Below are positions 4,500 to 47,006 of a DNA stretch of 47,006 bases, one piece after another. The number at the start of each line of letters is the position of its first letter. Within the stretch, counting starts at the first letter, position 1. Origin of the DNA: a virus (lineage: Duplodnaviria; Heunggongvirae; Uroviricota; Caudoviricetes); IMG/VR virus record IMGVR_UViG_2925903241_000004; one strand, given 5' to 3'. The notes below the pieces were generated by a model that was given only the letters and a program-made list of their open reading frames with translations, did no database searches and was not told the DNA's origin. Both the position numbers and the translations under genes were made by a program.

Positions 4500-4557
4500 A
4501 AAAAGGGCGGCAGAGCAGTCACGGAGTAAAACTGATACCGCCAAACGTCACCAGAAA
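4500..4557 (-). ncRNA. dicF: DicF small regulatory RNA (ftsZ-targeting sRNA)
   Basis: Reverse complement of 4500-4557 reads TTTCTGGTGACGTTTGGCGGTATCAGTTTTACTCCGTGACTGCTCTGCCGCCCTTTTT, matching the DicF sequence as I recall it, including its 3' hairpin and U-tract. Confidence 0.75.
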
Positions 4558-8885: not shown

Positions 8886-9242
8886 ATGGAAATAAAACCA
8901 GAGGATGAGTTAAGCAATATCGTTTTATTTCCGGTAAAAGAGGATGACCCTCGTAATCAGGTTAATTTTCTTTATGAGCCATCGGAAAGACCATATTGTC
9001 ATCACGCCTCTGTCCGGGTTGACGAAAAAGAGCGTCAGGTCCGCTGTAAAATCTGCGGTGCAGTTGTGGAGCCATTTGACTGGATGCTCTCTGTGGCGAA
9101 AAGAGAAACCAGACTGGCAGATGATGTAAGGCTCTTGCGTCAGGAGGAGCGGGAAAGGCGAAAAAATATAGAAAAGCTAATTCAGATTGAGCGTAACGCG
9201 AAAGCGCGGATACGCAGGGCGACAAAATCCAGAACTGAATAA
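8886..9242 (+). CDS. Hypothetical protein with CxxC...CxxC motif and basic C-terminal helix
   Basis: 118-aa ORF from ATG 8886 with AGGAGAGGAG RBS; CHH...CKICG cysteine/histidine cluster; Arg/Glu-rich C-terminus. Confidence 0.5.
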   Translation: MEIKPEDELSNIVLFPVKEDDPRNQVNFLYEPSERPYCHHASVRVDEKERQVRCKICGAVVEPFDWMLSVAKRETRLADDVRLLRQEERERRKNIEKLIQIERNAKARIRRATKSRTE

Positions 9243-9687: not shown

Positions 9688-9885
9688 GCGAGGTTAATTA
9701 TCAGGAAGGGCATGAAACGGCGGGGCAAGCAAAAACAGTGGCATGGCGATATCGCTACGTGAAAAAAAAGGCGTTACGGACTTTCAGGAGAAGTAGTGGT
9801 TGCGTATTACCGTGAAGGAGATCGGTGAGTAACATCGATGGAGATCGGTTCGTGTCACTTTCACAGAACCGTTTTTAAATTACCT

Positions 9886-10635
9886 TCACTGATCTCCTTC
9901 GGTCAACGGAGATTGTATTTTCCGCATTGATTCTCCTTTAAGTTCGATCTTGATACTGCCATGAACCAGTCGATCTAGGATGGCATCCGCATGTGTGGAG
10001 TCTCCGATCATTTTGTACCAGTTTTCCACCGGCAACTGGCTCACTACGATGATTGAGCCTCGTTGGTACATCAGATCCACTATTTCCAGCAGGTCGCTAC
10101 GCTGTTCTGATGAGAGAGGTTCCAGCCCCCAGTCATCCAGAAGCAGCAGATCGCTATTATTCAGCCTGGTCAAAAGTTTGCTGTATCTTCCATCAGCATG
10201 CCCCTGATAGCACTGTTCCATCAGCGCTTTAAGGCGATAATAGTAGACCTTGTATCCCTGTCGGCAGGCATTATGACCAAGTGCACATGCCAGGAACGTT
10301 TTACCGCTGCCGGTGGCCCCGGTCAGTAAAATATTTTGTTTCAGGGTTAACCAGTTTCCCTGACTGAGTGAACGGATGAGGGCCCTGTCCAGCCCTCTAT
10401 TGTTACGATAATCCAGCTTTGATAACTCAGCATTAAGTCTGAACCGTGCATGTTTGATCAGACGCTCTGCCTTCCTGTTTTCACGGCAGGTTAGTTCTTC
10501 TGCTGTCAGTAATGACAGGCGTTCTTCGAAGCCCAGCTCCTGGTATGTGCCCGGTTGAGCAAGTTGCTTTTTAAGCGCATCACGGAAGCCGGTGAGTTTA
10601 AGTGCGGTCAGTTGTTCGTAAAGATGATTCATCAT
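9886..10635 (-). CDS. istB: IS21-family helper ATPase IstB
   Basis: 249-aa ORF with Walker A (GATGSGKT) and DnaC/IstB-like layout; immediately downstream of istA. Confidence 0.9.
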   Translation of the reverse strand: MMNHLYEQLTALKLTGFRDALKKQLAQPGTYQELGFEERLSLLTAEELTCRENRKAERLIKHARFRLNAELSKLDYRNNRGLDRALIRSLSQGNWLTLKQNILLTGATGSGKTFLACALGHNACRQGYKVYYYRLKALMEQCYQGHADGRYSKLLTRLNNSDLLLLDDWGLEPLSSEQRSDLLEIVDLMYQRGSIIVVSQLPVENWYKMIGDSTHADAILDRLVHGSIKIELKGESMRKIQSPLTEGDQ

Positions 10636-10646
10636 TGGATCCCGTA

Positions 10647-12188
10647 TCAGTGGTAATACTCACTGCCGCGTACGTTTTCGTGTTCCATCGTGGATAACAG
10701 ATCTGGTTTTGGATCCTGAACAGGTTGTTTATCCAGACCTTTTTCCAGGATCGATTTAATACCTGACAGACGCCATACCTTTGTTTCCAGAGCTCTTGCA
10801 CATGCTGCATTAAGTCTGGCTTTACTGTATTTTTTATGAAGGTTCAGGAGTCCAAGGCAGAAGCGATAGCTTTGTTCCGGATGTGGACGAGAGTTCAGTA
10901 TATGAAGCACATAACTATGAGTTTCACTGCCTATGTGCCCCGCCCATTCCAGAAGACGCTCTGGCGTCCAGGTGGCATGCTGTCGATGAGCTTCAGGCAT
11001 GTGCTCGTTGCGGGTACTGTAGCCATAAGTACGCTTGCGCGGGTGCACAGCAACCTCCTGCCCCTGATTGAAGAGTCTTACCAGTTCTCCGGAGATCCAT
11101 GCTTCCAGTTGCTGGCCTAACAGCGAACATGGAACCGAGTAGTAATGTTTGTCGATTTCCACGTGGTAATCGGCATGAACTCTGACTTTCTTCACCAGGG
11201 TGTAACTGTAACTGGCTTCAGGAAGAGGCTTCAGTGCGGGTTTATCAAGCTGGATGAAGAGTTCTGCACGTGAATAACCCAACTTCTGCATTATTTTGTT
11301 ATTCAGTCTTTCCAGCAACTCCCGAATGCGCTGATTAAGCGATGCAAGGCTGTAGAAGATCTCATGCCTGATTCGGGCCATGATCCAGCGTTCAACAACC
11401 TGAACGCCAACTTCAGCTTTGGCTTTATCTTTCGGTTTACGTGGCCGCGCAGGCAAAACTGCGACATTATAATGCTCAAGCATCTGCTGGTAGGTAGGGT
11501 TAACGTCAGGATCATACTTACATGCCCTGGATGTGGCGCTTTTCAGATTGTCCGGAACAACAAGTTCAGGAACGCCACCCAACCACTGGAAGCAGCGAAC
11601 ATGACTCATCACCCAGTCTTCAAGCTGCTGAGACCAGGTGGCCTCTGCCCATGTGTAACTTGATGCCCCGAGAACAGCTACGATGACCTGAGCAGTTCTT
11701 ATTTCTCCGGTCTCAGGGTCGGTAACGCCAACGGTAGGTCCACAGTAATCAACGAAAAGTTTTTCGCCAGCTTTATGTACCTGACGCATTGATGGTGAAG
11801 TGGTTTTGAGCCATTCACGGTACATCCGGCAGTAATGGTTATAGCTGTAAAAACCGCCTGGATTACGCTCACAGTATTCTTCCCAGAGTAGCTGCAGCGT
11901 CACGCATTTATTACGCAGTTCCCGGTGTACTGTAGCCCAGTCAGGCAGAGAGTGCTTCTTCATCTTAACCTGGGTCTGAAGGAACGCATGTTTTAGTTTT
12001 GTATCATCCCATCCTGTAGGTAAGGGCCACTGCTTTATGCCAAGTTGAGCCGCCCGATTAGCATATCTGGATACAACGGAAGGGGAGATTGCAAGACTAC
12101 GACCAATTTGTCGATGGCTGAGTCCAACACCGTATTTAAGCCTAAGAATTTCTTTAAGTTTTCTCATAGAAATTGGAACTGTTGGCAT
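10647..12188 (-). CDS. istA: IS21-family transposase IstA
   Basis: 513-aa ORF with N-terminal HTH and DDE integrase-core-like region; paired with istB as in IS21-family elements. Confidence 0.9.
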   Translation of the reverse strand: MPTVPISMRKLKEILRLKYGVGLSHRQIGRSLAISPSVVSRYANRAAQLGIKQWPLPTGWDDTKLKHAFLQTQVKMKKHSLPDWATVHRELRNKCVTLQLLWEEYCERNPGGFYSYNHYCRMYREWLKTTSPSMRQVHKAGEKLFVDYCGPTVGVTDPETGEIRTAQVIVAVLGASSYTWAEATWSQQLEDWVMSHVRCFQWLGGVPELVVPDNLKSATSRACKYDPDVNPTYQQMLEHYNVAVLPARPRKPKDKAKAEVGVQVVERWIMARIRHEIFYSLASLNQRIRELLERLNNKIMQKLGYSRAELFIQLDKPALKPLPEASYSYTLVKKVRVHADYHVEIDKHYYSVPCSLLGQQLEAWISGELVRLFNQGQEVAVHPRKRTYGYSTRNEHMPEAHRQHATWTPERLLEWAGHIGSETHSYVLHILNSRPHPEQSYRFCLGLLNLHKKYSKARLNAACARALETKVWRLSGIKSILEKGLDKQPVQDPKPDLLSTMEHENVRGSEYYH

Positions 12189-12759
12189 AGGTATCCTTTA
12201 CCGGAATGGCAAAAGATACAGATCAACACACCTGTGAAGTTCCAATAACATTGATGGAGATCACTGAATAACAAAATGAGTCAAAAGTGATCTCCATCGA
12301 TGTTATTCAGCGATCTGTTCAAATGTTATTACCCGATCTCGATGGAAGTTATTGAGTGATCTCCTTTCATGAAAATACGCAGTAGTGGTCTGGTGACTGG
12401 AAATATGTACCGAAAAAAGAGGATTGTAACGACAGGCCGAACTATGAAATTCAGGCCTTATTCACTGCCCCGCCAGTCCCGGTTACATCAGAAGAACTGG
12501 TTAAAGCTGTGCACTTTTATGAACAACTAAAACGCGAAAATCCACCAGCATCCGGAAACCTGATTACAGATTCCCAGATAAGGCAATGAGCTACCTGGCG
12601 CAGAACGGGCTGATAAGTATGGGGAATGTTTTACGATGAATATTTAGACTAAAGAGTTTGTAACGCTATGTAAGTGATTTTTTCTGGTTTAGATATTTAT
12701 ATGTTCGGCCAAATTGAGGTGTGTTTAAATGTAATTGCACATTGATTGTAGGAGGAATA

Positions 12760-12939: not shown

Positions 12940-13198
12940 ATACAGCGAACGCCATTGGTTTAGTTGGATATTTACTGTGCCGGACAAAAACGGTTTGCGG
13001 GGAAATCTTAGTTAAGTAGAATGACTGCGGGTGCTTGAGGCTATCTGTCTCAGGCATGAACACCAAAAGGCAGATAGAGAAAAGCCCCAGTTAACATTAC
13101 GCGTCCTGCAAGACGCTTAACATTAATCTGAGGCTCAATCTATGAACGGCAAATCTAGGTTAGCCTCTTACGTGCCGAAAGGCAAGGAGAAGCAGGCT

Positions 13199-13354
13199 AT
13201 GAAGCAGCAAAAGGCGATGTTAATCGCCCTGATCGTCATCTGTTTAACCGTCATTGTGACGGCACTGGTAACGAGGAAAGACCTCTGCGAGGTACGAATC
13301 CGAACCGGCCAGACGGAGGTCGCTGTCTTCACAGCTTACGAACCTGAGGAGTAA
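13199..13354 (+). CDS. hok: Hok/Gef-family type I toxin (HokD/RelF-like)
   Basis: 51-aa product MKQQKAMLIALIVICLTVIVTALVTRKDLCEVRIRTGQTEVAVFTAYEPEE matches the Hok family; AGGAGA RBS; an in-frame upstream extension (from 13142) is open. Confidence 0.85.
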   Translation: MKQQKAMLIALIVICLTVIVTALVTRKDLCEVRIRTGQTEVAVFTAYEPEE

Positions 13355-16202: not shown

Positions 16203-16278
16203 GGCCCTTTAGCTCAGTGGTGAGAGCGAGCGACTCATAATCGCCAGGTCGCTGGTTCAAATCCAGCAAGGGCCACCA
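16203..16278 (+). tRNA. ileZ: tRNA with anticodon CAT, tRNA-Ile2 (ileZ/ileX-like) by similarity
   Basis: 76-nt cloverleaf folded by hand: acceptor GGCCCTT/AAGGGCC, D-stem GCTC/GAGC, anticodon loop CTCATAA, T-arm GCTGG-TTCAAAT-CCAGC, discriminator A and encoded CCA. Confidence 0.9.
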
Positions 16279-16599: not shown

Positions 16600-16820
16600 T
16601 CACAATTCCACAGCTTGATGATTGTCTGGCTGCCGGAGAATTTGTTAAAAATTACATCGCATGGTGAATCCCCCTCAGCGGCGGGGCATCTGGCAAAGTG
16701 TATGATCCAGAGAACATGCAAATTCAGTAGACAGGCTGAATTTACCGGGAGGCCCCTGGCACCATGCGACAGACAGAAATTAGGCTATACTTCAGCCCCT
16801 CTCCGGAGGGGCTTTTCTGT
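16600..16820 (+). repeat. Repeat unit A (promoter-like element ... strong terminator)
   Basis: Shares with unit B the blocks attgtctggc..cgg.ga.tttgttaaaaa..cgcatggtgaatccccct, gaattcaccgggaggc.cc.ggcaccatgc and terminal cagcccctctccggaggggct hairpin plus T-run. Confidence 0.5.
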
Positions 16821-17069
16821 GCAGGATGTGTCACAGTTTCCTGAATTCTGAGTACTGTCCTGTTACTCAGGGTGCTATATTTTCTGACGTGATGAAAGTC
16901 TGCCGGAAGGCGGAACGTATCGGAAATGACCCAGTAGAGAAAACGTTGACTCAGATACCGATGCTGAGTTACCGGGAAACCGGCATCACATGACCGCTAT
17001 CCTTCCAGGCTCGCTCCGGCGGGCCTTTTTACTGCAGAAAACAGTTTTCCCGTAAAATGCCACGTTGCT

Positions 17070-17285
17070 CATAATTCAGGCTGGCGATTATTGTCTGGCC
17101 GGCGGGAAGTTTGTTAAAAAATTTCGCATGGTGAATCCCCCTGTGCGGAGGGGTAATCAGCGAGTAGGTATATGGGATAATCGCGGATTCAGGTGCTGGT
17201 ACTGAATTCACCGGGAGGCACCCGGCACCATGCAATGGCACATAGCGCCACTCTCCAGCCCCTCTCCGGAGGGGCTGTTTATATT
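17070..17285 (+). repeat. Repeat unit B (second diverged copy of unit A)
   Basis: Same conserved blocks as unit A with different internal sequence; ends in an identical GCCCCTC-TCCG-GAGGGGC hairpin at 17258-17282. Confidence 0.5.
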
Positions 17286-17311
17286 GATTTTGTCAGATGT
17301 GAGTAAACTCC

Positions 17312-23764: not shown

Positions 23765-24991
23765 ATGCTTCTTGATGCTCTGTTTCGCAGTGAGTCTCTG
23801 GAAAATCCCTCGGTTCCGGTAACCGGAGAGGCCGCTGAGACGGATAATATTTTTGCCCGGGATGTGTATGTCAGTCCGGAAACATCCATGAAGCTGGCTG
23901 CTGTCTATGCCTGTATTTATGTTATTTCATCCAGTGTGGCTCAGATGCCCCTGCATGTGATGCGAAAAACGAATGAGCATGTTCAGCCTGCACGCGATCA
24001 TCCGTTGTTCTGGCTCGTTCATGATGAACCTAATGCCTGGCAGACCAGCTATAAGTGGCGGGAACTGAAGCAGCGTCATGTGCTGGGGTGGGGCAATGGT
24101 TATACGTGGGTAAAACGTAATCGTCGTGGAGAGGTTACCAGCCTTGAATGCTGTATGCCATGGGAAACCACGTTACTTAACACCGGTGGGCGTCATACTT
24201 ACGGGGTGTATAACGAAGAGGGTGCATTTGCGGTAAGTCCGGACGACATGATCCATATCAGGGCGCTGGGAAACAATCAGAAAATGGGACTGAGCCCGAT
24301 CATGCAGCATGCTGAAACCATTGGTATGGGAATGAGTGGCCAGCAGTATACCAGCGCCTTTTTTAACGGTAATGCCCGTCCTGCCGGTATTATTTCTGTG
24401 AAAAATGAACTGAACGAACAGAGCTGGGGCAGGCTTAAAAATATGTGGCAGCGGGCGGTGACAGCGCTTCGCAGCCAGGAAAATAAAACCATGCTGTTGC
24501 CTGCGCAACTGGATTACCGCGCTCTGACAGTTTCTCCGGTGGATGCTCAGATCATTGATATGACCAAGCTGAACAGGTCGATGATTGCAGGGATTTTTAA
24601 TGTCCCGGCGCACATGATTAATGACCTGGAAAAAGCCACATTTTCGAATATTACGCAGCAGGCGATTCAGTTTGTTCGCTACACGATGATGCCCTGGGTT
24701 GCGAACTGGGAGCAGGAGCTTAACCGTCGCCTGTTTACCCGTACAGAACGGGCTGCCGGGTATTACGTTCGTTTTAACCTCACGGGGTTGCTCCGTGGGA
24801 CCCCACAGGAGCGTGCGCAGTTCTATCACTTTGCCATTACAGATGGCTGGATGAGTCGGAATGAAGCCAGGGCATTTGAGGATATGAACCCGGTTGACGG
24901 TCTGGATGAAATGCTGGTCAGCGTAAATGCAGCAAATCCGTTGAATAACTTTAAAGATACGAAAGGCAAAGAGGAAAAGAACGATGAATGA
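23765..24991 (+). CDS. Portal protein (HK97 family)
   Basis: 408-aa ORF following the terminase; size and conserved regions consistent with HK97-family portal proteins. Confidence 0.9.
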   Translation: MLLDALFRSESLENPSVPVTGEAAETDNIFARDVYVSPETSMKLAAVYACIYVISSSVAQMPLHVMRKTNEHVQPARDHPLFWLVHDEPNAWQTSYKWRELKQRHVLGWGNGYTWVKRNRRGEVTSLECCMPWETTLLNTGGRHTYGVYNEEGAFAVSPDDMIHIRALGNNQKMGLSPIMQHAETIGMGMSGQQYTSAFFNGNARPAGIISVKNELNEQSWGRLKNMWQRAVTALRSQENKTMLLPAQLDYRALTVSPVDAQIIDMTKLNRSMIAGIFNVPAHMINDLEKATFSNITQQAIQFVRYTMMPWVANWEQELNRRLFTRTERAAGYYVRFNLTGLLRGTPQERAQFYHFAITDGWMSRNEARAFEDMNPVDGLDEMLVSVNAANPLNNFKDTKGKEEKNDE

Positions 24992-25582
24992 CCGTGAAAC
25001 GCGCTGTTACAGCGGGGAGGTGCGGGCGGAACAATATGATAATGCCCGACCCACATTCTGGGGTATGGCTCGGTATTTAACAGTCGTTCAGAACCTCTGT
25101 GGGGATTTCGTGAAATCATCAAGCCGGGGGCTTTTGATGATGTACTGAATGATGATGTACGTGGCTTGTTTAATCATGATCCTAATTTCATTCTCGGACG
25201 AAGTTCTGCCGGCACATTGTCATTGTCGGTGGATGAACGCGGTTTACGTTATGACATTGTTGCACCGGATACTCCGACTATTTGTGACCTGGTGCTGTCT
25301 CCAATGTTGCGTGGTGACATTAACCAGTCCTCGTTCGCGTTTCGTGTCGCCCGTGACGGAGAGAGCTGGTATGAAGACGACGAGGGGATTGTTATCCGGG
25401 AAATCACGCGCATTTCTCGTCTGTATGACGTCAGCCCGGTGACATATCCGGCCTATCAGGACGCAGACTCCGGTGTCCGCTCAATGAAAGCCTGGCAGGA
25501 AGCGCGGGCGAGTGGTGCGCTGAAGAAAGCTGTTAATGAACGAATGGCGCGTGAGCGCCTTTTGACCCTTCTTAATGCATAA
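24984..25582 (+). pseudogene. Prohead protease (HK97 family), apparent single-base frameshift in a G-run
   Basis: N-terminus (MNDRETRCYSGEVRAEQYDNARPTF, frame 0 from ATG 24984) and the conserved remainder (GYGSVFNSRSEPLWGFREIIKPGAFDD...LGRSSAGTLSL..., frame -1, open 25043-25582) lie in different frames; the switch maps to GGGG at 25060-25063. Confidence 0.7.
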
Positions 25583-39655: not shown

Positions 39656-39666
39656 GTGGGGTGAAT

Positions 39667-42600
39667 ATGGCAGTAAAGATTTCAGGTGTACTGAAAGACG
39701 GCACAGGAAAACCGGTACAGAACTGCACAATCCAGCTGAAAGCAAAACGTAACAGTACCACGGTGGTGGTGAACACGCTGGCCTCAGAAAATCCGGATGA
39801 AGCCGGGCGTTACAGCATGGACGTTGAGTACGGTCAGTACAGCGTTATTCTGTTGGTGGAAGGATTCCCGCCGTCACATGCCGGGACCATCACCGTGTAT
39901 GAAGATTCCCGACCCGGTACGCTGAATGATTTTCTCGGTGCCATGACGGAGGATGATGCCCGTCCTGAGGCACTGCGCCGTTTTGAACTGATGGTGGAAG
40001 AGGTGGCGCGTAACGCGTCCGCGGTGGCACAGAACACGGCAGCCGCGAAGAAGTCAGCCAGCGATGCCAGCACATCAGCCCGTGAGGCGGCAACCCGTGC
40101 GACTGATGCTGCAGGCTCAGCACGTGCAGCCAGCACGTCAGCCGGACAGGCCGCGTCGTCGGCTCAGTCAGCGTCTTCCAGCGCAGGAACGGCATCAACA
40201 AAGGCCACTGAAGCATCAAAAAGTGCTGCCGCCGCAGAGTCTTCAAAAAGCGCGGCAGCCACCAGTGCCGGTGCAGCGAAAACGTCGGAAATGAATGCCG
40301 CAGCATCACAAAAATCTGCGGCCACATCTGCATCCACCGCGACCACGAAAGCGTCAGAAGCTGCCACCTCAGCCCGGGATGCGTCGGCTTCAAAAGTGGC
40401 GGCAAAATCATCAGAAACGAGCGCTGCCTCGAGCGCCGGCAGTGCAGCTTCCTCGGCAACGGCAGCAGGAAATTCCGCGAAGGCCGCAAAAACGTCTGAG
40501 ACGAATGCGGATAACAGCGCACAGGCGGCAGCAGACTCACAAACTGCATCGGCAAACTCCGCGACAGCAGCCAAAAAATCAGAAACCAACGCGAAAAATA
40601 GTGAGGCAGCAGCAAAGGTCAGCGAAACCAACGCTAAAGCGTCAGAGAACAAGGCGAAAGAATATCTCGACAAGGTCGGGGGACTCGTCAGCCCGATGAC
40701 GCAATACGATTGGCCCGTTGTTACTGGTAATGAGTCTTTTTACATAAAGATCGCGAAACTTTCCGATCCCGGAAGCGGCAATTGCCATGTAACGCTAATG
40801 GTTACTAATGCCGGTAACTACGGCTCCCCTTACGGAAACATTGACTTTATCGAGATCTCGGCGCGCGGTCTGCCTTCTTTGCTTAGTGCGGATAATGTTT
40901 CTCGTCATCTGAGTATACGCCGCTTAGGGTCAATCGGGCTGACCGATAACAACCAGATGCGTTACGGCCTGGTTAAAGGTGACGGCTTTATTGAGGTTTG
41001 GGCCTTCCAGCGCGCATTTATCAACGGCGCAAAGGTTGCGGTGCTGGCGCAGACGGCACGCCCGGAATTATACATTCCAGACGGATTTGTTAAGCAAACC
41101 GCCGCGCCTTCTGGATATGTTGAAAGCCCCGTTGTAAGGATTTACGACCAGTTAAACAAGCCGACTAAAGCAGATTTGGGTCTTTCTAATGCTATGCTTA
41201 CAGGCGCTTTCGGTCTTGGCGGTAGCGGGATATCAACAAACGGCAAGATGAGCGATGTAGAGATCTTAAAAGCTCTGCGTGACAAAGGTGGTCATTTCTG
41301 GCGCGGTGATAAGCCGACCGGAAGCACGGCGACCATTTATAGCCACGGTTCTGGTATATTCTCGCGGTGCGGCGATACGTGGTCAGCGATCAATATCGAC
41401 TACTCAACCGCGAAGATTAAGATCTATGCCGGCAACGATGCCCGGCTTAACAACGGGACTTTTAGCATCAATGAGCTATACGGCTCGGCAAACAAGCCGT
41501 CGAAATCGGATGTTGGACTTGGCAACGTAACTAACGATGCGCAGGTGAAAAAATCCGGCGATGTTATGTCTGGTGATCTTGATATATTGAAAGAAACGCC
41601 ATCTATCAGGCTAAAATCAGCAAAAGGAACCGCTCATCTGTGGTTCATGAACAACGACGGAAGCGAGCGCGGCGTTGTTTGGTCGCCTGAAAACAACGAA
41701 TCACTTGGCGAAATCCACATCAGGGCGAAAAACACAAAAGGTGAATCAAGTGGTGATTTTATTGTTCGCCACGACGGGAGGGTTGAGGCCCGCAATCTAA
41801 AAATAACTTACAAAATCAGCGCAGCCACCGCAGAATTTGCAAACACAAGCACCAGTTCCGATAACACTACGGTAAGCATCAAAGGATCTCAGCATACGCC
41901 TTTGGTTTTAACGAGCAACAACACAATTAAAAACTTGTCCATTGGGTTTAAGGTTGATGATGTTGATCAAAAATACCTGGGTATAGCTGGTGACGGTGAT
42001 TTGTATTTTGGTAGTTATTCTGACCACACAAAAAACAGCAAAGTAATCACACAAGCAAAACTCGATAGCGGGGTGACGGTAGGCGGTAAAACAACCTTTT
42101 CTGACTTTGCCACATTTAACGCAGGTATGGCGGGATCTATCGAGCCGGAAACCATTGACAACAAGACTATTGATTTAAACGACTTGATCATTGCTAATAC
42201 AGTGGCTGGATCTGTTAAATACTATCAATGCAAAACTGTTGCAGGTGGTGCATATATTACCAATAAGCCTGACGGCGTAAGCGGTAACTTTTTGCTACGT
42301 GTAGAATCTACTCGTAAAACTACGGGTTCAGATTATGCGATCATGCAAACGCTGATTGGCAGCGACACAAAACGCATATACGTTCGCTTTGTTGTCAATG
42401 GAAACTGGACGGAGTGGAGTCAGGTAGTTGTTTCAGGATGGAATCAGGATGTAACCGTCAGGTCGTTAACCTCGACGACTCCATCAAAATTAGGCGGCGG
42501 GCGTGTTGATGTGCTGGGGAGTACGTCAGATTACAGTAGTATGAATTGTGCTGTGCGCGGTGTTGATAGCACTGGAACCAATTCGGCGTGGTCGGTAGGC

Positions 42601-42990
42601 ACATCAGAAAGCACAGGCAAAATGTTGTTCCTGAAAAACCACAGAAGCAGCGCTCAAGTGCTGTTAAATGGCGATGATGGAGCGGTTCAACTACTAAGTG
42701 GCACTGTTAACGGTGCTACAGCGCAGGCGCTAACCATCAACAAAGATGAGGTTAACTCAACTGCCGATTTAGTAATTAGAAAACAAACAGGGACTGGCAA
42801 TCGTTTTGCTTTACTTAATTCAGGTAATTCAGAACTACCAGTTAGTATCAGGGTGTGGGGTTCCAGTACTCGACAAAACGTTTTTGAGGTTGGAACGTCT
42901 GCTGCGTATCTGTTTTATGCGCAAAAAACAACAGACGGGCAAAACCTTACTGAACCGCCCCGGGTTTCCTGGAGAGTGTTTTATCTGTGA
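39667..42990 (+). pseudogene. stf: Side tail fiber protein, N-terminal portion, interrupted by an IS629-like insertion at 42950/42951
   Basis: N-terminus MAVKISGVLKDGTGKPVQNCTIQLKAKRNSTTVVVNT... matches lambda Stf; long Ala/Ser/Thr-rich low-complexity region; the frame runs 40 nt into the IS terminal repeat before a stop at 42988-42990. Confidence 0.85.
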
Positions 42991-42992
42991 AC

Positions 42993-45735
<2,743 letters not shown>

Positions 45736-46153
45736 CGTAAGTAAAATCAGCCACCCACAGCTGGTCAGGTCGTTCTGCCACGAACTGACGGTTTACGCGG
45801 TCGCCTGCGGCAACGGCTTTCCGGCTGATGGTCGTACGGACCTTTTTACCCCGGAGAACACCGGCAAGTCCCATAACCGCCATGAGACGTGCCACAGTGC
45901 ATCTGGCCACTCTGATACCTTCCCGTAACAACTGACGCCAGACTTTACGCACACCGTATACCTTGTGATTTTCATCGTATACGCGCTGTATCTCTTTCTT
46001 CAGCCAGTCATCGCGCTGCGCACGGGCACTGCGTTTATCCGGATGATGTCGCTGTTGCTGACAGTGGTAATACGTTGACGGGGCAATATGCAGTTCGCTG
46101 CATAGCGGTCCGACCCCGTACTGCTCACGCAGCTTATCCAGCAGTGGCATCAT
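45736..46153 (-). pseudogene. IS3-family transposase OrfB, N-terminal exon (upstream of intron)
   Basis: Encodes ...YGVRKVWRQLLREGIRVARCTVARLM...DQLWVADFTY then runs into intron sequence; overlaps the orfA 3' end as expected for an OrfAB frameshift arrangement. Confidence 0.8.
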
Positions 46154-46475
46154 TTTTTCCAGAGGCGGTCGAACTCCGCCTTCGCAAAATAAGCGGAAGC
46201 CTGGCGAAGGATATCGTTACTGCGGCGCAGTTCACGATTTTCACGTTCCAGCTCTTTCAGACGCTGACGTTCAGCGGTGGTGAGCCCTCCATCACCGCCC
46301 CCGGTATCCCGCTCATGCTGGCGAACCCAGACACGCAGAGTCTCCGGCGTACAGCCAATCTTTGGAGCAATGGAACAAATTGTCGCCCATTGTGAGTCAT
46401 ATTCGCTCTGACTTTCCAGAACCATACGGACTGCCCGTTGACGGACTTCGGGGAAAAACGAGTATTTTTAGTCAT
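46150..46475 (-). pseudogene. IS629-like OrfA, frameshifted near the N-terminus
   Basis: MTKNTRFSP (from ATG 46475) and the rest ([34 protein letters not shown]...) are in different frames; break maps to the G-run 46452-46455; recalled IS629 has one more C here (TTTTCCCCCGAAG). Confidence 0.75.
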
Positions 46476-46532
46476 CCTGTTTACCTCTTTCTCAGGAAGT
46501 TTAGTCTCCAGGATTCCCGGGGCGGTTCATAC

Positions 46533-47006
46533 TGTAAACGGAAGTGTTAACTGCACCACACTGAATCAGTCATCAGACCGCAGACTGAAAGAAAATATCG
46601 AGATTATCGATAACGCGACTGACGCAATCCGCAAAATTAATGGATACACGTACACGCTCAAGGAGAATGGGGCACATTGCGCCGGGTTATAGCCCAGGAA
46701 GTTGAAGAGGCCATCCCGGAGGCCGTTGGTTCATTCATCCATTACGGTGAAGAGTTGCAAGGCCCGACCGTTGACGGCAACGAGCTACGCGAAGAAACGC
46801 GCTATCTTAATGTTGACTACGCCGCCGTGACGGGTTTACTTGTTCAGGTCGCCCGTGAAACAGATGATCGCGTTACCGCGCTGGAAGAGGAAAACACAAC
46901 GCTACGTCAAAATCTGGCAACAGCAGGCACCCGGATCAGCACTCTGGAAAATCAGGTAAGCGAACTGGTTGCACTTGTCCGGCAGTTAACAGGAAGCGAA
47001 CATTAA
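46533..47006 (+). pseudogene. stf: Side tail fiber C-terminal portion with intramolecular chaperone (peptidase S74-like) domain; frameshifted
   Basis: Continues the stf frame across the IS site (...QNLT/VNGSVNCTTLNQSSDRRLKENIEIIDNATDAIRKINGYTYTLKENG...), then shifts frame at the G-run 46684-46686 into ...RRVIAQEVEEAIPEAV...; stop coincides with the window end. Confidence 0.75.

Follow-up and report, generated by a model that had tools for sequence, protein, structure and literature searches.

Three single-base frame breaks in a lambdoid prophage of Escherichia coli ST167: one apparently inherited deletion and two probable assembly artefacts

A prophage in which three genes each change reading frame at a short run of G or C raises the question of whether those genes have really decayed, or whether the assembly has read its homopolymers one base short. 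Such is the case of the lambdoid prophage analysed here, which fills a window of 47,006 nt (the whole stretch of DNA under study). It is bounded by the integrase gene (minus strand, 1-1119) and, at 47006, by the stop codon with which a fragment of a tail-fibre gene ends, and its HK97-type head genes come in the order terminase, portal, protease, major capsid and connector. The first-pass annotation had placed the breaks in the prohead protease, in orfA of an IS629-like element, and in the chaperone domain of a tail fibre, and had offered real decay and systematic homopolymer undercall as the two possible answers. Comparison with orthologous prophages, which it had also proposed, bears out that all three breaks exist, since each of them lacks one base with respect to its orthologues. 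The run lengths compared in this way are equal for the G run at 25060-25063 of the protease, and differ as C4 versus C3 in the same gene, G5 versus G4 in IS629, and G4 versus G3 in the tail fibre.

The reading that we favour, and that we hold as a whole to be likely, is a split one, in which the protease carries an inherited deletion and the other two breaks are probable artefacts. The decay of prophages through IS insertion and frameshift is textbook knowledge, and what this prophage presents is ordinary decay plus assembly noise, with no new biology implied.

The prophage and its relatives

In the close relatives of this prophage, where it adjoins potC/potD, the gene order runs from integrase, excisionase, exonuclease and dicB through the repressor region, hokD/sok, the Q antiterminator and the lysis genes to iss/bor, and continues with HNH, terminase, portal, prohead protease, major capsid, the tail genes, gpJ, lom and the side tail fibre. 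AR216.2b, an E. coli isolate from a dog in Switzerland, is identical to the window across its 47,006 positions except for two single-G deletions, with no substitutions at all. M217 is separated from the window by the same two deletions, by one SNP (8900), and by the 2.6-kb insertion of ISEc12 at 9801-12380. Position 8900 is the sole substitution with respect to M217 in the 44.4 kb that both share, with A in the window and in AR216.2b, and C in M217. As a whole, the prophage region holds too few SNPs to provide a phylogenetic signal on the carriers of CCC and CCCC.

The ISEc12 copy (9801-12380, minus strand; IS21 family with istA/istB, according to the PGAP labels) lies in a small gene of the early region and is absent from M217. 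The same junction is found in 14 RefSeq genomes, which comprise the series of Ec-050 (an ST167 NDM-5 strain), AR216.2b, AR202.2, 'ST167' from a cat, MSB1_8G/1A and strain 361. This insertion, shared by AR216.2b and the Ec-050 series, marks the sub-clade of the window and is a convenient clade marker. The six RefSeq assemblies of Ec-050 and its derivatives T0, T5 and T20 differ in chromosome length by at most 36 bp (4,848,845-4,848,881), which suggests that hybrid assemblies of one clone may often differ by small indels that are mere noise.

The early half of the window also carries several RNA genes. A tRNA with anticodon CAT at 16203-16278 is called tRNA-Met by ARAGORN and in the ON470612 record, and tRNA-Ile by PGAP in M217 and AR216.2b; it is presumably a lysidine-modified tRNA-Ile2. 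Two tandem copies of the STnc100 sRNA are located at 16629-16822 and 17098-17286, the sok antitoxin RNA (13029-13204) adjoins hokD, and DicF (4505-4556) adjoins dicB. This set of STnc100, sok and DicF is a Qin/Rac-like small-RNA cargo, typical for lambdoid prophages.

The prohead protease: position, inheritance and effect of the lesion

The gene for the HK97-family prohead protease (Peptidase_S78) lies on the plus strand at 24984-25582, between the portal and the major capsid genes, and is split in two: an N-terminal ORF of 54 aa, open in the 0 frame from 24984 and stopping at 25148, and a C-terminal remainder at 25166-25582, which reads in the -1 frame up to 25582, as expected from one missing base. 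The break had been assigned to the GGGG run at 25060-25063. However, this run (plus strand) is native to the gene and is not the lesion: the intact orthologues of WCHEC005784, APEC O1 and phage Evi have four Gs as well, and a Klebsiella phage that is 79% identical has GGGC at the same place, the frame CTG GGN TAT being common to all of them (CTG GGC TAT in the Klebsiella phage). Alignments of the orthologues locate the lesion at the CCC of 25045-25047 (plus strand), where the intact genes have CCCC; the loss of one base here, near codon 22, turns GCCCCG into GCCCG, and this position does lie within 25043-25066, the interval indicated at first. A five-G run had also been considered as the intact allele, and was dropped after a 65-nt query containing GGGGG found no exact match in 671 genomes and the alignment moved the lesion to the C run.

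Upon addition of one C at 25045-25047, an ORF of 199 aa is restored that equals WP_000999828.1 exactly. The native peptide across the lesion region is ...YDNAPTHILGYGSVFN..., and the intact protein reads ...NAPTHILGYGSVFN. The restored peptide proposed in the first-pass annotation, RPTFWGYGSVFN, was half wrong, the true peptide at the break being APTHILGYGSVFN. The restored protein matches PF04586 over residues 13-168 and profile positions 5-159 of 165 (E=1.6e-40; 139 bits with a cut-off of 21), and the break, at about codon 22, falls inside this Peptidase_S78 domain, of which the longest downstream ORF, the C-terminal one, covers profile positions 55-159 of 165 only. Its profile match and its location between the portal and the major capsid genes place the gene in the HK97/S78 family; the whole S78 domain is left without an uninterrupted frame, and the gene is a pseudogene member of that family. 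As such it was already known in RefSeq, where the PGAP entry for both M217 and AR216.2b reads 'HK97 family phage prohead protease, frameshifted'.

The case for a real deletion is one of inheritance, since relatives that are otherwise identical carry it as well. Out of 671 complete E. coli genomes of RefSeq, 94 match a 64-nt query for the window's allele exactly, the others aligning over 65 nt. These carriers stem from a wide range of laboratories, countries and hosts, and the top-ranked matches, about 90 of them, are 100% identical to the window across 1401 nt around the gene. The same CCC allele is present in three GenBank 'phage' records (ON470607.1, ON470612.1 and ON470621.1), which are prophage regions extracted with PHASTER from Illumina HiSeq/SPAdes assemblies of UK isolates, and the 54-aa product specific to the frameshift is recorded in 777 blocks of a public protein collection, mostly from contigs of 10-200 kb. 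Illumina data are not prone to errors at runs of four bases. Given the many laboratories, the Illumina assemblies and the records of the 54-aa product, a shared artefact is not credible, and the protease break is, as far as sequence comparison can tell, a genuine one-base deletion inherited within the ST167 lineage. To judge from its carriers, the allele shows a single origin and clonal inheritance: the change from CCCC to CCC would have occurred once in an ancestor, to be passed on clonally from then on.

This distribution also bears on the proposal that a systematic homopolymer undercall lies behind all three breaks, and that the prophage genes are really intact. All three are indeed one-base contractions of G/C runs, and G/C runs that measured at least 4 nt before the deletion hold all of them, although such runs make up only ~1.9% of the bases of the window, which indicates that the placement in runs is non-random. 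However, slippage and sequencing error both favour homopolymers, and placement alone cannot tell them apart. What does tell against a systematic undercall, besides the presence of the protease allele in 94 complete genomes and in Illumina-only assemblies, is the state of the remaining runs: the window has 902 G/C runs of 3 nt or longer, of which only 2 depart from AR216.2b, and outside the last 560 nt not a single run of any base does (2353 runs). By comparison, contractions number ~1.2 per kb, with long A/T runs the most affected, in an assembly of this prophage that really is undercalled. With these data the proposal is effectively refuted, and we give it hardly any credence. The assembly used for that comparison, GCA_949813035.1 (CATKVG010000001.1), is a clear systematic undercall, with five homopolymer contractions in 4.2 kb (T6, T4, A7, G5 and T7) that break the portal, protease and capsid genes.

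Regarding its effect, the deletion cuts the protease off after ~21 native residues, and translation from a start further downstream cannot make up for the ~50 positions with which the Peptidase_S78 profile begins; we infer a loss of protease function. By analogy with HK97-type heads, it is reasonable to expect that a broken protease would block head maturation and render the prophage defective.

The frameshift might instead be tolerated, with an active protease arising through -1 slippage, of the ribosome or in transcription, or through initiation at an internal start codon; the prophage would then still be inducible. The TTG-initiated ORF at 25166-25582 does keep the conserved motifs LFNHD and NQSSFAF, and PHASTER scored the same prophage, split protease included, as 'intact' in UK isolates. 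However, what that internal ORF encodes begins only ~50 positions into the profile, and the PHASTER score is a heuristic of gene content that provides no evidence of function. Between the lesion and the stop codon the 0 frame offers no canonical slippery heptamer (none of the form X_XXY_YYZ was found in that frame in 24984-25148), and a C3 run is far below the length needed for transcriptional slippage. Furthermore, the gene is a single uninterrupted ORF in 577 of the 671 genomes and in related phages, which means that the break is not a conserved site of recoding. The absence of a canonical heptamer, the partial downstream ORF and the 577 uninterrupted orthologues together make a programmed -1 recoding of the protease very unlikely, and we regard a tolerated frameshift in any of its forms as highly improbable. 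Only slightly less remote is the idea that the CCC allele may have been fixed by selection in ST167, a lineage of global success, where it would lock in a prophage with iss/bor, lom, hokD and dicB by abolishing virions and keeping the conversion genes, or that it may be leaky, with traces of protease made through non-canonical slippage.

The three records ON470607.1, ON470612.1 and ON470621.1 were deposited as 'Escherichia phage vB_EcoS-...' with the PHASTER score 'intact', the split protease being present in them, and they carry 13 kb of host flank (mfd, lolCDE and potCD). They were considered as possible evidence of particle formation and rejected, since they are PHASTER extractions with host flanks and not virion DNA. 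The label 'intact' for a prophage with a split maturation protease is misleading, and its combination with a deposition as 'phage' is a practical caution for users of such records.

The severed side tail fibre and the two private contractions

The other two breaks are found where the side tail-fibre gene has been interrupted by IS629. The N-terminal ORF of the fibre, of 1109 aa (39661-42990), is severed by the element from its C-terminus, and enters the IS629 end by ~38 nt, so that its stop codon comes from IS sequence. What is left on the other side is an orphaned C-terminal fragment (46530-47006, plus strand) which corresponds to approximately residues 1101-1258 of 1258, holds the Peptidase_S74 chaperone domain, and is labelled by PGAP as 'tail fiber domain-containing protein, incomplete, missing N-terminus'. 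In the intact 1258-aa fibre of strain 127, to which this fragment is 99.8% identical if the deletion is left aside, PF13884 is found at residues 1115-1166 with 60 bits (cut-off 22). In the window the S74 domain is not joined to its fibre body: IS629 and the intron inside it, 3.6 kb in all, make up the gap between 39661-42990 and 46530-47006. The same N-terminal fibre DNA appears in PGAP as a full CDS in M217 and as a 435-nt pseudogene fragment in AR216.2b.

IS629, of the IS3 family, occupies 42953-46529 on the minus strand, with an uncertainty of about +/-5 nt at the left boundary, and its other end, ...GGGGCGGTTCA, finishes at 46529; these junctions were placed by comparison with strain 127, which has no IS, and with WCHEC005784, which has IS629 without the intron. 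The identity of the element is given by the match of its restored OrfA to PF01527 (HTH_Tnp_1), by the PGAP label, and by an ALIL pseudoknot (RF01497, 120 bits; 46079-46195, minus strand), the signal of the programmed -1 frameshift between orfA and orfB of IS629. This is not an autonomous copy, with orfB interrupted by a group II intron of ~2.27 kb (~43466-45735, with ltrA at 43556-45079 and the Rfam model Intron_gpII at 43466-43552) and orfA lacking one base at codons 9-10. The exact product of the intron-truncated OrfB is recorded in 2235 blocks, at many unrelated loci and in at least six places of GCA_964049245.1, which suggests that the composite of IS629 and intron, or the homing of the intron into IS629 copies, is widespread. 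PGAP reports the programmed frameshift between orfA and orfB as 'frameshifted' in truncated IS629 copies, where it could pass for decay.

The contraction in orfA is a run of GGGG at 46450-46453 (minus strand, codons 9-10) that is ancestrally G5, the orthologous copy and nearly all other IS629 copies having GGGGG (CCCCC in the coding strand). One G is missing here, as had been claimed, and the coordinates are these and not 46452-46455. Its addition restores an OrfA of 108 aa that matches PF01527. An exact 68-mer with the four-G allele occurs in 12 of 4764 records with IS629-like copies, five related plasmids among them. The contraction in the S74 domain, ancestrally G4, is a run of GGG at 46684-46686 (plus strand), precisely where it had been noticed; all orthologues have GGGG, and adding a G restores a continuous fibre C-terminus, ...KENGAHCAGVIAQEVEEAIPEAVG....

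Both contractions are private to the window among its orthologues. The three-G tail-fibre allele is absent from all 348 RefSeq genomes with that segment; exact-pattern scans found it in no IMG/VR contig, versus 13 contigs with GGGG, and in none of the GTDB species representatives or JGI metagenomes. Among 144 genomes that share the IS629/fibre junction none matches the window exactly, and the best 60 of these 144 matches all span 2009 nt, versus 2007 in the window. Exact look-ups of the 109-aa, 72-aa and 84-aa products specific to the private frameshifts returned no record, a result to be read with the reservation that gene callers may choose other starts; an 83-aa product from an internal start is recorded, but at loci with the normal G4/G5 alleles, which makes it uninformative.

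These two private contractions are probably residual consensus errors of long-read assembly and not biology. Both alleles are absent from independently sequenced, otherwise identical relatives, and what favours an artefact is that the window shows two indels and no substitution, that both are contractions of G runs, that only 234 nt separate them (two runs taken at random would be this close with a probability of ~0.01), and that they are in or near a multicopy IS. In mismatch-repair-proficient E. coli, substitutions are said to far outnumber indels at runs of 4-5 nt, as Lee et al. reportedly found in PNAS in 2012, so that two indels with zero substitutions would be an unlikely spectrum of real mutations. 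The window spans both ISEc12 and IS629, each present in 4-6 places per genome, which points to a long-read or hybrid assembly, since a short-read one would normally break there; the Illumina-derived ON470612.1 appears, from extrapolated coordinates, to stop at the IS629 boundary. The residual errors of long-read assemblies are mostly errors of homopolymer length, and they survive short-read polishing in repeats (PMC8812927; Wick and Holt 2022).

Nevertheless, not everything fits an artefact equally well. The IS629 site lies inside the multicopy IS, whereas the tail-fibre site is 155 nt outside it and single-copy (one place per genome record), and polishing that is blind to repeats directly explains the first site only. 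Moreover, the density is as low as 2 per 47 kb, and the affected runs are short (G5 and G4), with longer ones (A8, T8 and G6) untouched, which is not typical of a poorly polished nanopore assembly. A methylation-linked nanopore error was considered for both sites and dropped: a Dcm site (CCAGG) was seen by eye ~7 nt from the fibre run, and no Dam or Dcm site near the IS629 run.

If the contractions were not artefacts, they would be very recent neutral mutations, due to slippage, in remnants that were already dead, and all three breaks would then be real. We regard this as possible but rather unlikely. Both sites lie in non-functional DNA, an intron-split IS629 and a severed fibre fragment, where real neutral mutations would be free of purifying selection; an error at the single-copy fibre site should have been fixed by ordinary polishing; the four-G IS629 allele can exist as a heritable variant, given the 12 other records that have it, some of them apparently by inheritance; and the rest of the window is free of errors with respect to AR216.2b, including runs of 6-8 nt. 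On the other side of the balance stand the two indels without any substitution in 47 kb, the 234 nt between them (p ~0.01), the failure of the three-G fibre allele to appear in any of the four collections searched, and the fact that both changes shorten G runs in a long-read assembly, as consensus errors typically do in direction and context (PMC8812927). It is on these grounds that consensus error appears to us the better reading for the two private sites.

Order of decay and comparison with known systems

The genomes compared show the alleles, how these are distributed, and in what order the insertions came, and the decay of the prophage would have followed five steps. The starting point would be an intact prophage as in strain 127, with an intact protease and an intact 1258-aa fibre with its Peptidase_S74 domain. 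IS629 would then have entered the side tail-fibre gene, as in WCHEC005784, which has the junction of the window, no intron, and an intact protease. The group II intron in IS629 and the protease deletion would come next, as in M217, the two being entered jointly with no order between them. The insertion of ISEc12, as in AR216.2b and the Ec-050 clone, would be the fourth step, and the window would be the last one, adding its two private deletions.

The answer to the question posed at the beginning is thus not the same for the three breaks. Real decay holds for the protease, with its 94 genomes and Illumina assemblies; for the other two, private to the window, an artefact is the likelier explanation; and a systematic undercall finds no place where only 2 of 902 runs differ. 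The useful outcome is that the position of one lesion has been corrected and that one inherited mutation can be told apart from two assembly-private differences. Orthologues are needed to pin a frame break to a given homopolymer: in this protease the G run that caught the eye proved innocent, and a shorter C run 15 nt upstream guilty. In the same way, comparison across a population distinguishes pseudogenes that are inherited from differences that a single assembly shows, and the latter would otherwise raise the counts of pseudogenes, or the indel distances, in the outbreak typing of ST167 NDM-5 clones.

Regarding the protease, the closest known system is WP_000999828.1, an HK97-family prohead protease (Peptidase_S78 / MEROPS S78), which has the same sequence once the ORF is restored and the same placement between portal and capsid; its relatives in phage Evi and in the Klebsiella phage vB_VIPKPNMC05 are colinear proteins of 199 aa. 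Contrary to WP_000999828.1, the window and the 94 RefSeq genomes have one C missing at about codon 22. The IS629 copy shares with the known element (IS3 family, RF01497) the HTH_Tnp_1 of OrfA, the ALIL pseudoknot and the terminal repeat. In known IS629 the change of frame from orfA to orfB is programmed and no sign of decay, and the break at 46450-46453 is a separate event from it. Unlike the orthologous copies in all relatives, that of the window is broken at codons 9-10 of orfA, and unlike the IS629 of WCHEC005784, which is the same insertion without the intron, its orfB is interrupted by a group II intron.

The two single-base contractions of G runs, in or near a multicopy IS, resemble the long-read homopolymer errors of the type described by Wick and Holt, and differ from typical ones in their very low density, in the single-copy nature of the second site, and in the long A/T runs that remain unaffected. 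As for the fibre, a comparison can be made with phage lambda itself. The side tail-fibre gene stf of the laboratory strain lambda PaPa reportedly carries a frameshift, which Hendrix and Duda are said to have described in 1992. There, too, a one-base frameshift affects the tail-fibre gene of a lambdoid phage in a propagated lineage, which illustrates that the loss of side fibres is tolerated, and hence that the death of this prophage does not have to be due to the insertion of IS629 in the fibre. In contrast to lambda PaPa, the fibre gene of the window was first cut by IS629, and its frameshift lies in the orphaned piece and is private to one assembly.
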